A DNA stretch of 64,000 nt from Oscillospiraceae bacterium (GCA_021200775.1 JAJQGB010000016.1:191575-255574), one strand, 5' to 3'; shown: positions 7,698-50,233, numbered from the stretch's first letter. The notes: generated by a model from the sequence alone, not told the origin. Translations and numbers: made by a program.

Positions 7698-7780
7698 GCA
7701 CCTGTGGTGGAATTGGCAGACACGATAGATTTAGGTTCTATTGCTTTTGCGTGCAGGTTCAAGTCCTGTCAGGTGCACCA
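7698..7780 (+). tRNA. tRNA-Leu (anticodon TAG), CCA encoded
   Basis: Acceptor stem GCACCTG/CAGGTGC, anticodon loop TTTAGGT, long variable arm, T-arm AGGTTCAAGTCCT, 3' ACCA. Confidence 0.9.
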
Positions 7781-7797
7781 TTTCTCCCCGTAATAAT

Positions 7798-7871
7798 GCA
7801 GATGTAGTTCAGTGGCAGAACATCAGCTTCCCAAGCTGAATATGCGGGTTCGATTCCCGTCATCTGCTCCA
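7798..7871 (+). tRNA. tRNA-Gly (anticodon CCC), CCA encoded
   Basis: Acceptor stem GCAGATG/CATCTGC, anticodon loop TTCCCAA, T-arm CGGGTTCGATTCCCG, 3' TCCA. Confidence 0.9.
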
Positions 7872-34025: not shown

Positions 34026-34799
34026 ATGAAAAATTATTTTGATTTGACCGGCAACGTAGCTGTCGTCACCGGTTGCTCTACCGGACTTGGTGTCCAGATG
34101 GCAAAGGCTCTTGCCAATCAGGGATGCAAAATCGTCGTTCTGGCTCGCCGTCAGAATCTTATCGACGAAGTTGCCGCTGAAATCACCAAGGATTACGGCG
34201 TAGAGACCCTCGCAGTCGCTTGCGACATCACCAATACCGACCAGGTAAAGGCTGCTGTAAAGGCGGCAATGGACAAGTTCGGACGCATCGACATCCTTAT
34301 CAACAATGCCGGCACCGGCGGAGTTGCTCCTGCTGAGGACATCACCGACGAAGTTCTCTTGAACGAAGTCAACATTGACCTCGTTGGTACCTTCAAGATG
34401 GCTCGTGAAGTTGCCAAGAACGCTATGATTCCTGCTGGATATGGCAGAATCATCAACATTGCTTCCATGTACGGTCTCGTAGGAAACAAGATTGCTCCTG
34501 CGGCTCCTTATCATGCGGCAAAGGGCGGTGTTGTTAATCTTACCAGAGCTCTCGCTTGCGAGTGGGGCGACAAGGGCATCACTGTCAACACCATCTGCCC
34601 CGGCTACTTCGAGACTCCTCTTACCAAGGAGACTCTCCAGAGCGAATTCTTCCAGAACTATGCTCACACCATGATTCCTGAAGCTCGCTATGGTCAGGAT
34701 GGCGAGCTCGACACCGCCGCAATCTTCTTCGCATCTCCCGCTTCCAGCTATGTCAACGGCGCAGTTCTTCCCGTTGATGGCGGCTACACTTCTCTTTAA
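34026..34799 (+). CDS. SDR family oxidoreductase (gluconate 5-dehydrogenase/KduD-like)
   Basis: VAVVTGCSTGLG, NNAG, and the SMYG...YHAAKGG catalytic Y-x3-K motif. 257 aa. Confidence 0.85.
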   Translation: MKNYFDLTGNVAVVTGCSTGLGVQMAKALANQGCKIVVLARRQNLIDEVAAEITKDYGVETLAVACDITNTDQVKAAVKAAMDKFGRIDILINNAGTGGVAPAEDITDEVLLNEVNIDLVGTFKMAREVAKNAMIPAGYGRIINIASMYGLVGNKIAPAAPYHAAKGGVVNLTRALACEWGDKGITVNTICPGYFETPLTKETLQSEFFQNYAHTMIPEARYGQDGELDTAAIFFASPASSYVNGAVLPVDGGYTSL

Positions 34800-34814
34800 T
34801 CTCCGGATTTATTT

Positions 34815-34846
34815 CCCCCGTAGAGAAATCTGCGGGGGATTTTTTT
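34815..34846 (+). terminator. intrinsic terminator
   Basis: Stem CCCCCG / CGGGGG, then ATTTTTTT. Confidence 0.7.
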
Positions 34847-34855
34847 ATGAACCTA

Positions 34856-34884
34856 TTGACAAACACCCGAATTTATGGTATAAT
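34856..34884 (+). promoter_or_regulatory. promoter P1 of the LRR surface-protein gene
   Basis: TTGACA (34856-34861), 17 nt, TATAAT (34879-34884). A second candidate is TTGTTC-16-TATAAT at 34933-34960. Confidence 0.6.
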
Positions 34885-34980
34885 TAATTAGAGGCACTAA
34901 AATAAGTGCGCACTTACTTTTTTAAGTTCCGCTTGTTCGCAGGTGTCTACTGACTATAATACTGAATGGAGGAAACCCCA

Positions 34981-37455
34981 ATGACAAAAAAGATTTTAGT
35001 AATGCTTCTGACCCTCTGCCTTGCTATTGCGGCAATGACGATTGCGACTATGGCAGAAACAGTTTCAGGCAATGGTTGGAGTCTTGATACCGAAACCGGC
35101 GAGCTAATCATTGATGACGATATGGGCTCGTATTATTGGGCAAATACTAGCAGAAGCACTTATGCCTCATATGTTGTAACTGCTACAATTAAGAGTGGTT
35201 CAGCTGTTTACAGAAGTACCTTTGATCACTGTACAAATTTGACTTCAGTCTCGTTACCCAGCGGGATTACATCCATAGGGGATAATGCTTTTAATGGATG
35301 CTTTAAATTGGAGTCAATAGATATACCGAGCAGTGTAATTTCTATTGAGAGTATGGCTTTTTACTATTCGGGAATTACCTCAGTCACCCTTAGCTGTGGC
35401 ACGACATACGCAATCGATTCTTTCCCAACTAGTTGCACCATCACCCAAGCTGCCCACACCTACGTCAACCACGTCTGCTCGGTTTGCGGCTCTCTTGACT
35501 GCATTGCCTATGGCGATGGCTGGGTTTTGGCTAATGACGGGACGCTTAGATTTACAGATACTAACGGTATTTGGTATTGGGCAGAAACCGACCATACGGC
35601 TTACTGCGAGAAAGTGACATCAGTAGTTTTTTATGATGGAACCGATTGTATCCCTAGTGAAGCCTTCAATGGCTGCAGTAATCTGACATCGATAACTATC
35701 CCCAATACTGTGACGGAGATCGGAGACTATGCGTTTTACGGCTGTTCGAGCCTGACTACAGTGACCATTCCAAGTAGCGTAGAGTTTATCGGATCAAGTG
35801 CGTTTCAAGGATGCTCAGGACTGCAATCGTTCGTTATTGAGAACTGTGGGCTTGAATTCGATGCTGGCGCGCAGGAGGTAGCTGAGAACATAATCACCCA
35901 ATCCGCCCACACCTACTCTGGCGGCGTGTGCACGGTCTGCGGACAAACCAACTCCGACTACGTCACCGTTGGTTCTGTTGAGTTGTATGACGGGTATTAC
36001 ACCACCAACGGCACGTCTATTGCCACCACTACGCCCACTGACAACTATGCCTACTACGACGCCAGCACCGATACCCTGTATCTCAAAAACTTCACCTACA
36101 CCACAGCCGGCACGGTGGCATATGGCGCAACCATCCAACCAAACTCAGGAAATCTCACCATCAGCCTTTCTGGTGACAACACAATAGGCGGGGAGACCTA
36201 CGGTATCCATTCCAACGTCGGAAGTATAACCCTTGTGAGCACAGATGCCGAAAACATGGGAAGCCTGACGATTAATACAAATACGAGCTTGGCTAGTATT
36301 TCCAGAGGAATTTACTGCACGAGCAATATTACTATAGATGGTGTATCTGTCACAATTAGTGCGATAGCACAATCGGTTTATTCTACTAGTTGTGTATATA
36401 TCCGAAATGGTACAGTATTGAGTGCAAACAATTGTTTGGGCGCCAACTATGATATTTACCTGGAAGACAGTAAAGTAACGGTAACAAAAGAATATGATGA
36501 TAGTAATGGCTTGGGAGGCAAGTATATTTATATCACTTCAAGCGAAGTGGTTGTAAGTGGAACAAAAGCGATTGATTGTGACGAAAGTTTATACATCACT
36601 GAGAGCGATGTTACATTAATCGGCAAAATAGCCGTTGATGAAGAGGCAATTGTCATCCCGGCAAATAACAGTCTGTGGCAGGTTGACTATGGAACTTCCG
36701 AAACCAGTTATAAGTCGAGTGTGATTGATGATGAGACAAATTACTACGACGATTGGGAAGATTATACCTACATCAGAGTCGCCGAGCATGAACATTCATA
36801 CACTTCGGGAGTGATGACTGCGGCTACTTGTACTGAAAAGGGCGTAATGGTTCATGCTTGCATCTGCGGGGACAGTTACACGACGGAAATTGCGGCTACC
36901 GGGCATAGCTACGAATCAGTCGTAACCGAGCCTACATGCACCGAGAAAGGCTACACTACTTACACTTGCTCCGTCTGTGGGGACACTTACACCGATAGCG
37001 AGACTGAGCCAACCGGGCACACATATGACTATACGAATATCGCCTGGAACTGGGTAAACAACAGCACGGTTACCGCAACGGTCACTTGTTCCTGCGGAGA
37101 GACATGGACAAAGGACGCAACGGTAACTTCAAGAAATGTCCTCGGCGTGGTGACAAGAACGGCGACGGTGGAGTTTGATGGAGTGTCCTACTCTTCCGAC
37201 CCTGTAACTTCCGGCACCAGCCTGCTGATAATCGGGGCTCTCACTCAGACAGGCTCTGAAGAGGTAGTTTCTGAGGAAACGGATTCCGAAGTAGTAGAAA
37301 TTACCGAGCCGGTAGAAGACACGAACACCGAATCCGAACCGGAAGAGGAAGTTGAGACTCCGGCAGACGAAAATCCCGCAACCGGAGCTGTGATAGCGCT
37401 ACTTCCAATAGCGATTGCAATCGCAGGCATGATAAGCAAAAAGCGACTTGGCTAG
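34981..37455 (+). CDS. cell-surface BspA-type leucine-rich-repeat protein with Cys-knuckle repeats and a C-terminal sortase-type sorting signal
   Basis: Signal peptide MTKKILVMLLTLCLAIAAMTIATMA. LRR units such as FDHCTNLTSVSLPSGITSIGDNAFNGCFKLESIDIPSSV. C-terminus DENPATG + AVIALLPIAIAIAGMI + SKKRLG. Confidence 0.8.
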   Translation: MTKKILVMLLTLCLAIAAMTIATMAETVSGNGWSLDTETGELIIDDDMGSYYWANTSRSTYASYVVTATIKSGSAVYRSTFDHCTNLTSVSLPSGITSIGDNAFNGCFKLESIDIPSSVISIESMAFYYSGITSVTLSCGTTYAIDSFPTSCTITQAAHTYVNHVCSVCGSLDCIAYGDGWVLANDGTLRFTDTNGIWYWAETDHTAYCEKVTSVVFYDGTDCIPSEAFNGCSNLTSITIPNTVTEIGDYAFYGCSSLTTVTIPSSVEFIGSSAFQGCSGLQSFVIENCGLEFDAGAQEVAENIITQSAHTYSGGVCTVCGQTNSDYVTVGSVELYDGYYTTNGTSIATTTPTDNYAYYDASTDTLYLKNFTYTTAGTVAYGATIQPNSGNLTISLSGDNTIGGETYGIHSNVGSITLVSTDAENMGSLTINTNTSLASISRGIYCTSNITIDGVSVTISAIAQSVYSTSCVYIRNGTVLSANNCLGANYDIYLEDSKVTVTKEYDDSNGLGGKYIYITSSEVVVSGTKAIDCDESLYITESDVTLIGKIAVDEEAIVIPANNSLWQVDYGTSETSYKSSVIDDETNYYDDWEDYTYIRVAEHEHSYTSGVMTAATCTEKGVMVHACICGDSYTTEIAATGHSYESVVTEPTCTEKGYTTYTCSVCGDTYTDSETEPTGHTYDYTNIAWNWVNNSTVTATVTCSCGETWTKDATVTSRNVLGVVTRTATVEFDGVSYSSDPVTSGTSLLIIGALTQTGSEEVVSEETDSEVVEITEPVEDTNTESEPEEEVETPADENPATGAVIALLPIAIAIAGMISKKRLG
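37018..37338 (+). repeat. C-terminal module, copy 2 (shared with 31165-31491)
   Basis: Encodes [82 protein letters not shown]...TEPVEDTN. Confidence 0.8.
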
Positions 37456-42600: not shown

Positions 42601-42629
42601 TTGACAACCGCAAAATAGTATGCTACAAT
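42601..42629 (+). promoter_or_regulatory. promoter of the beta-helix protein operon (leader copy 1)
   Basis: TTGACA (42601-42606), 17 nt, TACAAT (42624-42629). The 10-mer CTTGACAACC is shared with the promoter at 49615-49624. Confidence 0.65.
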
Positions 42630-42635
42630 TTCAAC

Positions 42636-42796
42636 ATAAGGTGAGCATTATGTGAAATGTTCAATCTACGTAATTTGTGTGGGGGGGTAACACCTTCTGT
42701 GTGCCCAATTTTCGACCTCCAACACTAACTAATAGTGCTTTGGAGGAGTTTTATATTTGTATTTTGTCCTCCTTGGCGTCAAGGAGGTATTTTTTT
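42636..42796 (+). promoter_or_regulatory. structured 5' leader, copy 1 (G-run, TGCCCA box, two CCUCC/GGAGG hairpins; SD sequestered)
   Basis: Hairpin 1 at 42716-42746, then a U-tract. Hairpin 2 at 42768-42787 (CCTCCTTG/CAAGGAGG), then TATTTTTTT and the ATG. Homologous to 49651-49835. Confidence 0.6.
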
Positions 42797-45274
42797 ATGG
42801 TAAAAAGGCTTTTGTGCGTTATAATCAGCGTCTTGATTTCAGTTGTTCTTCTAACAATCAGTGCAATAGCTGATGATAATACAGAAGAAACCGCTTCGCC
42901 GGTTGCTTCTATTGGTGGAGATGAATATGGTACTCTTGAAGAAGCCATAACAGCTGCAAGTGCAGCTTCAAGTGATGTAACAATAACCCTGCTTTCCGAT
43001 GTAGAACTAGACACCTCCCTCACCATCCCTGCCTCCACATACACCATAACCTTGGACTTAAACGGCTGCACTATAAGCCAGTCGGAAGATTTTGCTGATG
43101 ATAAGATTATATATGTGCTTGGTATTCTTACTATAATGGACGGAAAAGAAAATGGAAGAATAGTTGCGGATAATCAATACGGCATTATGGTTAGTGGCAG
43201 TAGTGCCGTATTAAATATCAACTCCGGAACAATTGTCGCGACAAATCGGGGAGTACACATAGGCGCACAAGGTGTTTTAAATATATCTGGAGGAACAATC
43301 ACATCTTCGTGGATAGGCGTGCTCGTTTATAATGGAACACTAAATATCTCCGGCGATAACACGGTGATTGGTTCAGTAGAAAATACAACATATGGAGTAT
43401 ATTTAGATCAATCTGGATGTTCAGAAAAAGTAAATATAACTGGAGGACATGTAAGTGGGAAGTCTTATGGCATATACATAAGGTCTAATCCTCATGCAAG
43501 TGTAACCATATCAGGCGGATATATAGTCGGCAAAAATTATAGTGCTGTTAACATATATCAATATGGCAGTATTTCCGTTGATGGTGGCTATTTTAGCTCA
43601 GATGTTACAGAGTTTTGTACTTCCGGATATGCTTGTGAAGAGCTTTCAGAAGAAGTAAACAGTTGCTCTTATCAGGTAGTAGAAGCAACAAGCGAAAATG
43701 CAGTTTTATCTGTAACTTCTTCTACGAACGGAGAAATTACTTACCATAGTACACTCGCAATTGCTGTTTCATCGGCATCTGAGGGAGACACCATAACTAT
43801 TCTGAAAGATACCACTGTAAGTGAAACGGTTACAGTAGATAAGTCGCTTGAAATTGATCTTTACGGGCACACTATCAGTGGTAGCGTTAGCGGTAGAACT
43901 ACGGCGATGTTGTATGTTTCCGGTAGTGATGTAAGTCTGACAATCAGTGATAGCTCTGAAGAGCAGACGGGGTGTATAACAAATACATATACGTCAATTA
44001 GTTATGCAATTTTAGTTGCGAATTATGCTTCTTTGACTGTTAAGGGTGGAACAACTTCTGGTTATCGAGCTTTGAGACTGGCTACATATGCTTCGGCGAC
44101 TGTCGAGGGAGGGACACTAGAAGGAACTAATAACGGTGCTGTTTATATGGAAGTAAGCAATGGTCTTGTAATTACCGGTGGAACAATAACAAGCGCAAAT
44201 AGTTGGGGAATATTTCAATCTTCCAGTTCATCAGTTACAGTATCAGGTGGCACAGTTTATGGTAAGACATATGGGATTCAACAGACCTCAGCTAATATAT
44301 CTCAAAGGGTAACATTAAATGGGGGAGAAGTTTCAGGCGGAACATGTGCTTTGAAAATAACCAAGTATTTGACTGTTCCGGAGGATTCGACGGTTATAGT
44401 TACTGGTGATTCGGTTTTGGAATTAGATCTTACTTATTCTTCATATAGCAATATAGCTATCGCCGGTGGTTACTTCTCAAGTGCATTGGAAGAAGATTGG
44501 TGTGCTGAGGGGTATATTCCTACAGAAGTGATTACTGAGGGGGATTATGCGGGGTACTATTCTGCTATGAAAGGCATTTACCTTGGCATCAGCAGTGATA
44601 CTGAAAGTACAATCAAGATTCCTGCTACTATAGAGTATGGCGAAGATGAAGCTATTATGTATGTGCTGGTTTCCGGCGATTATATCGGCACTGACGGATA
44701 TTATTCTAAAGAAGCTTATCCCGTAACATCTGCAACGTATGCGGAAGCTGGGCACCTAGAAGCGGGGTACTTGTTTGCCGGTTGGTATTCGCTTTCTGAG
44801 GATGGCATTAGCTATAAGGCTTTGACAGAATTCCCGACGGGAACTGATGCATATGCCAAGTTTGTAGATGCAAATGTCCTGACAACCGGAGCACAGATTT
44901 CTGCTGGTACAGAGTCTACTTATGAGACAACTGATATGCGCTTTGTAAGCACGGTAGATGTTCTTGATTATTCGCTGGTCGGATTCAATATAACAATTGG
45001 CGAAGTAACAGTAACCGTAAAAACAAATACCGTTTATAGCAGTATTGTTGGTACAGATGGTGAGACGGAGTATGTCTATGAACCGCAGAGCTTCTGCAGT
45101 GCTTCAAACTATTTTGATGTTTATACACTAATGGAAATTCCCGCATCAGTATTTGATAGTGATATTACAGCCGAAGCTTATTGGGTGACCTTAGATGGTA
45201 CTACCGTTTATGGAGAAAGCAATACTTTCGTTATCAGCAGTATGATTTCCGAGAGTGGTTCTGAGAGTGAATAG
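42797..45274 (+). CDS. secreted parallel beta-helix repeat protein with a C-terminal InlB-B/Flg_new-type repeat
   Basis: Signal peptide MVKRLLCVIISVLISVVLLTISAIA. Repeated GGTITS/GGHVSG/GGYIVG/GGYFSS turns. GYLFAGWY motif. Start at 42797, behind AAGGAGG. Confidence 0.7.
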   Translation: MVKRLLCVIISVLISVVLLTISAIADDNTEETASPVASIGGDEYGTLEEAITAASAASSDVTITLLSDVELDTSLTIPASTYTITLDLNGCTISQSEDFADDKIIYVLGILTIMDGKENGRIVADNQYGIMVSGSSAVLNINSGTIVATNRGVHIGAQGVLNISGGTITSSWIGVLVYNGTLNISGDNTVIGSVENTTYGVYLDQSGCSEKVNITGGHVSGKSYGIYIRSNPHASVTISGGYIVGKNYSAVNIYQYGSISVDGGYFSSDVTEFCTSGYACEELSEEVNSCSYQVVEATSENAVLSVTSSTNGEITYHSTLAIAVSSASEGDTITILKDTTVSETVTVDKSLEIDLYGHTISGSVSGRTTAMLYVSGSDVSLTISDSSEEQTGCITNTYTSISYAILVANYASLTVKGGTTSGYRALRLATYASATVEGGTLEGTNNGAVYMEVSNGLVITGGTITSANSWGIFQSSSSSVTVSGGTVYGKTYGIQQTSANISQRVTLNGGEVSGGTCALKITKYLTVPEDSTVIVTGDSVLELDLTYSSYSNIAIAGGYFSSALEEDWCAEGYIPTEVITEGDYAGYYSAMKGIYLGISSDTESTIKIPATIEYGEDEAIMYVLVSGDYIGTDGYYSKEAYPVTSATYAEAGHLEAGYLFAGWYSLSEDGISYKALTEFPTGTDAYAKFVDANVLTTGAQISAGTESTYETTDMRFVSTVDVLDYSLVGFNITIGEVTVTVKTNTVYSSIVGTDGETEYVYEPQSFCSASNYFDVYTLMEIPASVFDSDITAEAYWVTLDGTTVYGESNTFVISSMISESGSESE

Positions 45275-45316
45275 TCACTATTCATGTTATTCTTTTAGGG
45301 AAGGAGCTTAATTATC

Positions 45317-45454
45317 ATGGAATACGAGAAAGCAGAGATGGAGATAGTTATCTTTGAATTTAATGATGTTGTAGTGCTGAGTAATGGAGGAAGTTACAAT
45401 TTAGACGACGATAGTGGAACTGGAAGAGGAACATTTGGGGAGCTTTTCAAGTGA
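45317..45454 (+). CDS. 45-aa acidic small peptide (MEYEKAEMEIVIFEFNDVVVLSNGGSYNLDDDSGTGRGTFGELFK)
   Basis: RBS GGAAGGAG lies 8 nt upstream. It is below the ORF-track cut-off. The next ATG follows its stop by 2 nt. Confidence 0.55.
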   Translation: MEYEKAEMEIVIFEFNDVVVLSNGGSYNLDDDSGTGRGTFGELFK

Positions 45455-45456
45455 AT

Positions 45457-46056
45457 ATGAAAAGTAAAGACATTAAAAAAACAGTTATTGCAGTATTGTG
45501 CATAGCGTCGCTGATTTTGCTTTGTTGTGTTGCAGTGATGGTTGTAAGGACAGGAAAGCAATCAAATGAGATTATCACTGAGGCGGAGGCGACTGCTAAT
45601 GCCATTGAGGCTGAACCAGCGGTGACAACTGTAACCGAGATGTCGGATGAGATAATTATCACAGAAACGTCGACCACAGTCACGGAATATTCTTCTGTCG
45701 AGACCGCTGTGGAAACGACAACATTGGAATCTGCCGAGATAACAACAATTACGACTACTGTAGCTAAGGATGAAGAAAATCCGGTAACGGTATGTAATGT
45801 CGATGACGAAGATGTTATAGAGCTGGATGATGAGGATAGTGTCGACCTTGAGGACGAAGAGATACTTCCTGAGACAACGGCTACTACAAGTCAATCGACG
45901 ATTCAATCATCAACATCAGTGTTGTGGTATACGGAAATTGTGACATCATCAGATTCAATAACTGATGGCACAGCTATAACTGAAGAATCCAAAGACAATG
46001 AGTTGTCAGTTGCTACCGAGTTGACAGATAACGCTGTCTGGGGACCGCTGTTTTAG
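45457..46056 (+). CDS. membrane-anchored Thr/Glu-rich low-complexity protein
   Basis: N-terminal TM segment (VIAVLCIASLILLCCVAVMVV), followed by T/E/S-rich sequence. Confidence 0.6.
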   Translation: MKSKDIKKTVIAVLCIASLILLCCVAVMVVRTGKQSNEIITEAEATANAIEAEPAVTTVTEMSDEIIITETSTTVTEYSSVETAVETTTLESAEITTITTTVAKDEENPVTVCNVDDEDVIELDDEDSVDLEDEEILPETTATTSQSTIQSSTSVLWYTEIVTSSDSITDGTAITEESKDNELSVATELTDNAVWGPLF

Positions 46057-49075: not shown

Positions 49076-49137
49076 CTTCTTTCCACCAGCCAAAAAATCA
49101 CCCCGTTTTTTGTCTCATTTGATACAATTACGGGATG

Positions 49138-49166
49138 ATTATAGCACAAATACTAGGTTGTGTCAA
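49138..49166 (-). promoter_or_regulatory. promoter of the Crp/Fnr-ABC importer operon
   Basis: Minus-strand TTGACA (49161-49166), 17 nt, TATAAT (49138-49143). Three tandem GATGGGTT-like 8-mers lie just upstream (49174-49197). Confidence 0.6.
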
Positions 49167-49615
49167 GAGGACTCCATCAACCCATCAACCCATCCAGCAG
49201 AGGTTCCTGCTCATAGACGATGGCGGGGCTTGTGAGTCCGTCAGAATATATCATTATGAATTAGTCCTTTCAAATACAGATTCCCGAATCGACAATTTGC
49301 GGGCTTGCCGCAAACTGCTCAAAAACCTGTTTTTAGGGAGCTAATCACGCATCATTCGGGGTAGCTAATGGTGAGACACTCCCGGATGCGTACTGGAGTT
49401 AAAAGAACTAATATTAACCTTGACGGATGTTTTTGTTTTCATAATAAAGACTCCTTTCGTTTTCACCGCCCGATGAAAACCACCGGTCGTCACTTAATTA
49501 GTGTCAATTTTCGGTAAAAAAGTTGCACTATAGAAAAAATTTTGTAGTTGGAGCTGATATGCGCAGTCGCCTCAAAATAATTTTTCCTTCTCCCAAAAAT
49601 TTTTTCAAAAACCTC

Positions 49616-49644
49616 TTGACAACCCCCACAAAGCGTACTATAAT
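49616..49644 (+). promoter_or_regulatory. promoter of the peptide / Myb-like cassette (leader copy 2)
   Basis: TTGACA (49616-49621), 17 nt, TATAAT (49639-49644). Confidence 0.65.
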
Positions 49645-49650
49645 ATAGAC

Positions 49651-49835
49651 ATGTTGTGGAAGAGATGATAAAAACACGACCACAATATTCATTTCGGGGG
49701 GTAATGGTTCCTGCGGAAAATATTTCCGAAGAATCATCTGCCCATTCCAAACCTCCGGACACTATCAAACAAGTGCAACGGAGGATTTTTAATACCTGTT
49801 TTCCTCCAAAGCGCAAAACTAAGGAGGAATTTTTT
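49651..49835 (+). promoter_or_regulatory. structured 5' leader, copy 2
   Basis: GGGGGGTAA 49696-49704. TGCCCATTC 49739-49747. Hairpin 1 at 49752-49784 (CCTCCG..CACT/AGTG..CGGAGG), then ATTTTT. Hairpin 2 at 49801-49829 (TTCCTCC/GGAGGAA), then TTTTTT and the ATG. Confidence 0.6.
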
Positions 49836-49979
49836 ATGGATAAAGAAACGACTGGTGCATATGAAGAGCCTAGTTTTGAAATGATTGCTATGGATGATGA
49901 TGTTTATATCATATGTAGTATTAGCGACGCAGCTGGTGGTGGTGAGGTAGGTGGCGGCGGACTTATATATGACGACTGA
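49836..49979 (+). CDS. 47-aa acidic Gly-rich small peptide (MDKETTGAYEEPSFEMIAMDDDVYIICSISDAAGGGEVGGGGLIYDD)
   Basis: RBS AAGGAGGAA lies 7 nt upstream. The long track ORF 49656-49979 is the same frame read through the leader. Confidence 0.55.
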   Translation: MDKETTGAYEEPSFEMIAMDDDVYIICSISDAAGGGEVGGGGLIYDD

Positions 49980-50233
49980 TGAGAAGAATAGCCCCCGAGA
50001 TAAAAGCCGAGCACGTTCGACACCGGAAGAAGATTGATCGCAAGCGGTACTATGGCAAGACGGCAAACAAGTATCCGAAGCGTGCCTGGACTGACGAAGA
50101 AATCCGGCTGGTTCTCGACCACTCCATCCCCGACAGCGAGCTATCAGAGAAAATCGGTCGCTCCCTGAAAGGCATCCAGGAAAAACGCCGACGGCTGAAA
50201 AAAGCAGAAGAAAACAAACAACAAGAAGCCTGA
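49979..50233 (+). CDS. 84-aa basic protein with a Myb/SANT-like helix-turn-helix
   Basis: AWTDEEIRLVLDHSIPDSELSEKIGRSLKGIQEKRRRL resembles a single Myb/SANT repeat. The ATG overlaps the peptide stop (TGATG). Confidence 0.55.
   Translation: MRRIAPEIKAEHVRHRKKIDRKRYYGKTANKYPKRAWTDEEIRLVLDHSIPDSELSEKIGRSLKGIQEKRRRLKKAEENKQQEA

Follow-up and report, generated by a model that had tools for sequence, protein, structure and literature searches.

A clade-restricted, multi-copy leader RNA motif with predicted Shine-Dalgarno-masking hairpins upstream of exported-protein cassettes in uncultured Oscillospiraceae

Several types of bacterial leader RNA place conserved hairpins between the promoter and the first gene. 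In translational attenuation of the erm/cat type, an upstream Shine-Dalgarno (SD)-like sequence and a leader peptide precede a hairpin which masks the real SD. The 5' mRNA stabilisers of Bacillus, including the aprE leader hairpin and the cryIIIA STAB-SD, protect transcripts from 5'-end-dependent decay, with the STAB-SD needing to be free for binding of the 30S subunit. Long surface-structure operons are subject to leader-dependent antitermination in the systems of Bacteroides UpxY, LoaP and RfaH/ops. Here, a promoter and leader module is described which occurs twice in a 64,000 nt stretch of DNA (GCA_021200775.1, JAJQGB010000016.1:191575-255574; hereafter the window, with positions counted from its first letter), the genes of which correspond by exact protein matches to locus tags LUG49_08690-08730 of an Oscillospiraceae metagenome-assembled genome (MAG). 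The leader is a clade-restricted, multi-copy RNA motif that is uncatalogued and of a general kind that is already known.

The two copies of the module are located at positions 42601-42799 (copy 1) and 49616-49838 (copy 2) (Table 1). Both open with CTTGACAACC, followed by a 17-nt spacer and the -10 hexamer, and share one block order, namely a 5'-proximal hairpin, a G-run with a following TAA, a TGCCCA box, two further hairpins, a T-run and ATGG. A preliminary description of this DNA had tabulated the corresponding elements of the two copies, and every row of that comparison was borne out by reading and aligning both regions, as were the T-run and ATGG at the end of both copies and the extra insert of approximately 23 nt in copy 2 (34 nt versus 11 nt, a difference of 23 nt). 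The composite TGCCCA-N-CCTCC-N-GGAGG is found twice in the window as opposed to none in 100 shuffles, while GGGGGGTAA has two occurrences versus 0.18 expected, and the fold z-scores against shuffles are -2.6 for copy 1 and -4.0 for copy 2. The last of the four predicted hairpins, here numbered P0 to P3 from the 5' end, contains the SD GGAGG of copy 2 (49823-49827) inside its 3' arm, with the ATG at position 49836, while in P2 of the same copy an SD-like GGAGG is masked by an anti-SD-like CCUCC in a hairpin of terminator-like appearance. The P3 arms of copy 1, which read CCTCCTTG (42768-42775) and CAAGGAGG (42780-42787) in the DNA, form a stem of 8 bp with a 4-nt loop and, with the following U7, were called terminator-like by a terminator scan.

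The two window leaders belong to a larger family. A total of 41 loci surrounding relatives of the 84-amino acid (aa) helix-turn-helix (HTH) protein encoded downstream of copy 2 were gathered from species-representative genomes, with a few more added via exact protein look-ups (loci are cited by L number), and the sequences of the two window leaders, then a profile and then a covariance model built on the leader were used for searching. The profile and covariance-model searches of these loci recovered 28 copies (E < 1e-4) in seven assemblies, at least five of which are separate GTDB species representatives, all from uncultured gut-type Oscillospiraceae, with 11 copies in the MI.11_1 genome alone. 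All 28 copies run in the direction of the coding sequence and lie directly before a start codon, in each case ahead of a cassette for secreted proteins or small peptides. The preliminary description had named confinement to this genome as one outcome that would speak against a functional RNA; with copies in seven assemblies, the similarity is therefore not confined to the source genome. Searches by nhmmer, covariance model and regular expression detected no leader in ~20 loci of other Clostridia and Coriobacteriia carrying the small HTH gene, nor in 32 metagenome loci carrying it. The exact P2-to-SD pattern has zero matches in the JGI/ENA metagenome contigs, a search for the leader core sequence in 200 of the 408 files of published human-microbiome RNA motif supplements gave no match, and no literature mention of the MAG accessions was found. 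One short-read contig (L005:1-19) starts with the last 19 nt of a leader, the assemblies breaking in the repeat. Contigs related to these loci are present in the metagenome runs SRR15221295 and SRR15221297.

Segment-wise folding yields the same four successive hairpins in each copy, in a leader of ~160-240 nt (typically about 190 nt). P0 begins within ~5-10 nt of the predicted transcript start in every copy, and its majority form, CAUGUGGU..GGAAG..GGGCxx/xxGCUU..ACCACAUG, includes an inner stem with double changes. The closing stem of P1, GGGUAC/GUACCC, uses the 3' half of the invariant G-run. Its GGG/CCC pairs are present in 28/28 copies, with U-A in 18 and U·G in 10 copies at the fourth pair, and it encloses 22 distinct interiors of 16-69 nt, which are wholly different between copies and have a mean fold z of -2.6 against dinucleotide shuffles. 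The G-run comprises 6, 7 or 8 G across copies (alignment A4) and differs between orthologues (6 in window copy 2, 7 in L007), for which homopolymer slippage is possible. P2 consists of CCUCCG/CGGAGG and an inner CACU/AGUG stem (-11 to -14 kcal/mol), the outer stem being paired in 100% of the alignment cells of the 28 copies, and is followed by an A and a nearly invariant run of 4-6 U. P3 pairs CCUCC with the SD GGAGG and is followed by AAUUUUUU (U6) and AUG. The SD matches AAGGAGG perfectly and is followed by a U-rich spacer of 8 nt, with a second GGAGG located ~65 nt upstream. In the minimum-energy fold the SD is paired in 27/27 leaders, with 88% of the P3 cells paired, as in SD-sequestering leaders, while both P2 and P3 have the form of an intrinsic terminator in all copies, namely a G+C-rich hairpin and U-tract between the promoter and the start codon. 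The conserved unpaired stretches comprise GGAAG/UAA in P0, the AUCAUUGC and AUACCAAA linkers and the P2 internal loop; the loops of the inverted repeats vary from 4 to 24 nt.

The paired architecture is reflected in the pattern of substitutions. In the model-based alignment 84% of the cells contain standard pairs, compared to 36-46% when the partners are slid by 1-3 columns, and double-sided changes occur at 12 pairs versus 7.8 in shuffles, with 0/500 shuffles reaching the observed number. The best single compensatory event is found in a strongly diverged copy with the same architecture (L021:14081-14239, also called L021b), where the P2 inner stem is AUAC/GUAU instead of CACU/AGUG and the P1 interior is GCGCGC/GCGCGC. 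A compensatory A:T to G:C change between the two window copies, at the sixth pair of the P2 outer stem, had also been put forward; the change is real, but as evidence it is weak, the family having G:C in 24, A:U in two and G:U in one copy at this pair, with the core stems otherwise invariant. On an honest reading, the P0 inner stem and the P1 interior provide real structural evidence, while the P1 base, P2 and P3 say little by covariation. One-sided changes are G·U-compatible, with U·G in 10/28 copies at one P1 pair and in 7/28 in P2, and G·U in 18/28 in P0. As G·U pairs become mismatches (A·C) in duplex DNA and in the complementary strand, these changes point to the sense-strand RNA as the selected molecule.

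Comparison of the window with the orthologous locus L007 shows an identity of 95.8% in the leader, 90% in the promoter and 72% in the 150 nt further upstream, with 81% and 86% at the third codon positions of the two flanking redox genes and 41% at those of the leader-driven peptide gene. The leader has therefore changed less than synonymous sites and much less than the cargo it drives. Inside the block, change has reached saturation in the promoter spacer, the loops and the P1 interior, with the -35/-10 hexamers, G-run, arms and linkers remaining fixed; likewise, the -35 and -10 are conserved and the spacer varies across the 27 copies of alignment A3. Similarity among paralogues extends from ~30 nt upstream of the -35 to ~80 nt into the coding sequence and then drops to background, and the repeated unit therefore comprises the promoter, the leader and the signal peptide. 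The proposal of a functional, structured leader, as opposed to a duplication of recent local origin, thus stands, given the 28 copies in seven assemblies, conservation of the orthologous leader beyond that of synonymous sites, variable inserts closed by the same stem and G·U changes compatible with the sense strand only.

From these elements, their conservation, strand and position, and from the masking of the SD in the predicted folds, we infer a regulated switch and its trigger: the element is probably a lineage-specific, cis-acting, structured 5' leader RNA which is off by default and is opened by a trans-acting factor. Transcription would proceed from a near-consensus sigma-A promoter, in a module made up of the promoter, the leader and mostly a conserved signal peptide. 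The pairing of the SD in 27/27 leaders and the terminator-like P2 and P3 argue for a default state that is masked, possibly with termination. The default fold would hide the ribosome-binding site and mask translation, and P2 and P3 may add premature termination, leaving the operon off or throttled until a trans-acting factor opens or bypasses them. Candidate triggers are a protein or RNA reading the conserved P0 internal loop, P1, linker or P2 surfaces, the small HTH protein of the cassette, or an antiterminator. A toggle in which the 3' arm of P2 is forced onto the 5' arm of P3 carries a penalty of +4 to +21 kcal/mol, the SD usually being re-masked by the other CCUCC, and additional pairing of the G-run with the P2 5' arm raises this to +14 to +31 kcal/mol; both toggles were rejected. 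Given these costly alternative folds, the switch is unlikely to work unassisted, and the simplest assumption is that a factor acts in trans. A leader peptide following the first GGAGG was rejected as an unmasking route, there being no conserved start codon or frame. Erm-type translational attenuation was similarly rejected, with a canonical start in only a handful of the 28 copies and inconsistent frames and stops, as was an RNA thermometer of the ROSE or fourU type, P3 being a perfect CCUCC/GGAGG-based helix of 5-9 bp (-9.7 to -20.6 kcal/mol).

Several observations weigh against this default-off leader opened in trans. The copies are not independent, the effective sequence number of the covariance model being 3.15, and the family is restricted to one narrow clade. 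Within one genome the leaders are mosaic, with identical 5' halves in L011, L015 and L018 and a 3' half of L009 as in L011 and L018. Because of these mosaics, gene conversion is considered to contribute to the uniformity of the leaders, and such concerted evolution inflates their apparent conservation. The sequence-only alignment is weaker, with 77.9% of cells paired and covariation no better than in shuffles on two of five measures, and the near-invariance of the P1 base, P2 outer stem and P3 leaves little true covariation. Finally, no plausible unassisted ON fold was found among the forced alternative pairings (+4 to +31 kcal/mol).

A bolder extension of the proposed switch is doubtful. Here the leader would constitute a new regulatory RNA class coordinating large, lineage-specific cassettes of secreted proteins and peptides (at least 10 per genome), in which a trans-factor acting on P0, the P1 base and P2, such as the small basic HTH protein, a processive antiterminator or a small ligand, overrides two tandem terminator/anti-SD hairpins, and the P1 insert or G-run length might tune individual loci. 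If this were true, individual loci would be selected for expression in a manner reminiscent of variable surface families.

Among the alternatives, the leader may be a constitutive expression or stability element and not a switch, with the 5' hairpin and SD-like sequences protecting the mRNA and supporting a high output of secreted proteins. The consensus promoter with its A-rich upstream region, the hairpin close to the predicted transcript start in every copy, the perfect SD with its U-rich spacer and second upstream GGAGG, the exoprotein cargo and the failure to find a workable ON/OFF alternative fold would all suit such an element. However, the upstream GGAGG is paired in 100% of the copies and the true SD is paired too, which is the opposite of an accessible STAB-SD or optimised ribosome-binding site, and simple stabilisation would not require the strict conservation seen in the unpaired linkers, in P2 and in the G-run, such that this explanation appears rather unlikely. 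It is improbable that the leader is a metabolite or second-messenger riboswitch, with a P0-P1-P2 aptamer, a P2/P3 platform governing surface and secreted proteins and a logic like that of the cyclic di-GMP riboswitches, as its helices follow one another in line without an evident pocket or junction of several helices, it occurs in one clade only with at least 10 copies per genome, the downstream genes are without a metabolic theme and no energetically reasonable alternative fold was found. Conserved unpaired stretches flanking conserved helices, tolerance of a variable-length stem at one position and a platform resembling a terminator and SD sequestrator are nevertheless what a riboswitch would show, and the lack of an Rfam match would make it a new class.

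The block may also have no RNA function, being kept by recent paralogy and gene conversion, or as a homology arm for shuffling exoprotein bodies, with incidental hairpins. This would be consistent with a conserved block spanning promoter, leader and signal peptide between unrelated sequence on both sides, with the mosaic leaders of one genome, with assemblies breaking inside the repeat (L005) and with the low effective sequence number. It is nonetheless highly improbable, given that substitutions have saturated the spacer, the loops and the inside of P1 without touching the hexamers, G-run, CCUCC/GGAGG arms or linkers, that all of the variable P1 interiors fold, that changes on one side of a pair remain compatible with G·U pairing, that the leader of the orthologous locus has diverged less than synonymous sites have, and that the architecture is retained before unrelated signal peptides and proteins in the copy 1 subfamily and L021b. 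Selection at the DNA level, where the inverted repeats would be operators for the cassette HTH protein or the poly-G tract a slipped-strand phase-variation site, is scarcely credible: the distance between half-sites is not constant in any inverted repeat (loops of 4-24 nt, 16-69 nt inside P1), as would be expected of hairpins but not of operators bound by a dimer, and the symmetry of the DNA is lost through substitutions of the G·U type. In addition, the extra G residues lie outside the P1 pairing with no evident tract-length effect, and the kind of P1 shows no apparent correlation with the N-terminal type of the HTH protein across cassettes. The points in its favour are the HTH gene, which is last in most cassettes, the G-run length of 6-8 G that differs between copies and even orthologues, and the frequent phase variation of multi-copy surface-protein families in general.

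The genes following each copy were tabulated, and the usual cassette codes for an exoprotein, a small peptide, a Thr-rich membrane protein and a small HTH protein. The first gene product combines a conserved signal peptide (MAKRLxCxxLSxLM...) with a wholly variable body of 184-1911 aa, the second is a 40-50-aa peptide with a motif of the Y-E-x-[HP]-x-x-E/x-I-I-x-F type, the third a Thr-rich membrane protein or lipoprotein of 160-225 aa and the fourth a basic protein of ~85 aa. The common theme of the cargo is export. Copy 2 and its orthologues L001, L007 and L008b are without the exoprotein, the leader driving the peptide directly, and the 47-aa peptide contains an E-P-x-F/M-E-x-I motif common to the small peptides of other cassettes. 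The copy 1 subfamily (with L008a and L012a) precedes other exoproteins, with NosD-like beta-helix repeats in the window and BspA-type leucine-rich repeats and a lipase domain elsewhere. Where different cargos had been described for the two window copies, the gene contents are as given, but the cargos are not unrelated, both being fragments of one cassette type.

Table 1. Positions of the module elements and of the downstream genes in the window; hairpins are from folding.
Feature	Position	Strand	Details
Copy 1 promoter	42601..42629	+	TTGACA 42601-42606; 17 nt; TG-TACAAT, TACAAT 42624-42629; 11/12 consensus and extended -10 TG
Copy 1 P0	42643..42662	+	GAGCAUU / AAUGUUC; other sequence than copy 2, same position
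Copy 1 P1	42681..42707	+	7-G run 42681-42687 and UAACAC / GUGUGCCC(A); short interior; CCCA at 42704-42707
Copy 1 P2	42716..42753	+	CCUCCAA 42716-42722 / UUGGAGG 42740-42746; inner CACU/AGUG; then U-rich tail
Copy 1 P3	42768..42796	+	CCUCCUUG-GCGU-CAAGGAGG 42768-42787 and UAU7; SD sequestered; canonical intrinsic terminator form; ATG 42797
825-aa exoprotein, copy 1 cargo	42797-45274	+	signal peptide, NosD-like beta-helix repeats; cargo span 42797..46056
45-aa peptide, copy 1 cargo	45317-45454	+	
201-aa membrane protein, copy 1 cargo	45451-46056	+	
Copy 2 promoter	49606..49644	+	A-rich upstream stretch; -35 TTGACA 49616-49621; 17-nt spacer; -10 TATAAT 49639-49644; 12/12 consensus (sigma-70-type)
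Copy 2 P0	49651..49688	+	AUGUUGUGG / CCACAAUAU, near 5' end
Copy 2 P1	49696..49744	+	GGGGGG 49696-49701 and UA pair with UGCCC(A) 49739-49744
Copy 2 P1 insert		+	34-nt hairpin, CGGAAA-AUA-UUUCCG; enclosed by P1 stem
Copy 2 P2	49752..49790	+	CCUCCG 49752-49757 / CGGAGG 49779-49784; inner CACU/AGUG; then A and U5 49785-49790
Copy 2 P3	49801..49835	+	UUCCUCC 49801-49807 / GGAGGAA 49823-49829; 15-nt loop; U6 49830-49835
47-aa peptide gene, first cargo of copy 2	49836..49979	+	MDKETTGAYEEPSFEMIAM...
84-aa basic HTH protein, last cassette gene	49979..50233	+	long basic helix and three short helices in the model; HTH matches weak

The 84-aa protein is one of a tight family of 32, in which single genomes encode many paralogues, with at least eight in the source MAG and ~10 in another. 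Its structure model (predicted local distance difference test score, pLDDT, of 88) consists of a long basic helix followed by three short helices in a three-helix bundle. No Pfam or NCBIfam match was found for this protein, and the label 'Myb-like' given to it previously was not confirmed, the Foldseek matches being weak and to generic HTH folds only (best E = 0.26), with one Myb-like domain ranked 44th. No correlation was seen across cassettes between the type of P1 insert and the N-terminal type of the HTH protein.

Gene content also differs among related loci. A gene coding for a ~200-aa protein lies between the peptide and HTH genes in L001 (2293-2997) and L007 (9404-9988); it is missing from the window (at 49979), where the peptide is strongly diverged. 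This protein has only sub-threshold matches to HprK-related kinase/ScmC and no PDB sequence match. Similarly, a Gp49-like/HTH (toxin-antitoxin-like) pair occurs between a Crp-family regulator and the leader in L001 (1063-1706) and is absent from the corresponding window region (49094-49600). Five tandem genes for 37-48-aa peptides with a Y-E-x-H-x-L-x-I-I-x-F type N-terminus are found right after the small HTH gene in L025 (10525-11202), an array which looks like precursors of signalling peptides or of peptides akin to ribosomally synthesised and post-translationally modified peptides (RiPPs). In L004 (386-5872) a small HTH paralogue directly follows three large serine recombinase genes, a context which suggests a mobile element.

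Elsewhere in the window, the region at 34680-34850 was considered as a third copy of the leader (covariance model 20 bits, E = 0.028) and rejected, as it is the terminator of the upstream gene. The neighbouring stretch at 34855-34984 contains a consensus-type promoter (TTGACA..TATAAT), a different leader of ~95 nt and then a signal-peptide protein (ATG ~34982, MTKKILVML...). The first hairpin of this leader, GGCACTAAAATAAGTGC, is similar to the inner stem of P2 and to the 5' portion of the diverged leader L021:14040-14239. At gathering thresholds, Rfam 15 identifies only two tRNAs in the whole window, encoded by adjoining genes at 7698-7868, and permissive Rfam scans of copy 1, copy 2 and a consensus-like member gave nothing better than E = 0.68. 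Membership of the PyrR binding site family (RF00515) was rejected, with 16-18 bits (best 17.8) against a gathering threshold of 54, E of 3-6 and only the terminal hairpin aligned.

Should the leader be a genuine switch, it would be the point at which an expanded family of secreted proteins and small, RiPP-like peptides is jointly controlled in uncultured gut-type Oscillospiraceae, a group whose gene regulation is little studied, and would add an uncatalogued RNA motif of unusual design, with two tandem anti-SD/SD hairpins behind an invariant G-run. The promoter, leader and signal peptide module further marks exported genes in these organisms and would make a compact test case of repeated leaders which are kept functional while their cargo diversifies.

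Among described systems, the leaders resemble the SD-sequestering expression platforms of riboswitches and protein-controlled leaders in the Firmicutes, in that a CCUCC anti-SD pairs with the GGAGG ribosome-binding site near the start codon, conserved structured helices lie upstream and the hairpins are followed by U-runs. They differ from these in having no Rfam aptamer match, an anti-SD/SD hairpin occurring twice in tandem, an invariant G-run, no competing antiterminator or anti-sequestrator of comparable energy and a cargo of secreted proteins and peptides; no mutually exclusive antiterminator fold of comparable stability was found. Serial hairpins ending in a terminator-like stem and U-run are also characteristic of the PyrR binding site. 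An upstream SD-like sequence followed by a hairpin masking the real SD is shared with the erm/cat-type leaders, which, unlike those described here, contain a leader peptide; a canonical start codon follows the first GGAGG in few copies, without conservation of the reading frames. The 5'-proximal hairpin, the SD-like sequence far from the start codon and the exoprotein cargo recall the aprE and STAB-SD stabilisers of Bacillus. In contrast to the STAB-SD, the SD-like sequence is fully base-paired here, GG[A/G]GG being present in 28/28 copies but paired in 100% of the cells. The likeness to UpxY, LoaP and RfaH/ops is one of logic only, with a conserved leader and terminator-like hairpins preceding many paralogous, long, surface-related operons per genome; it differs from the present cassettes, where neither a NusG-like gene nor an ops-like element was found.

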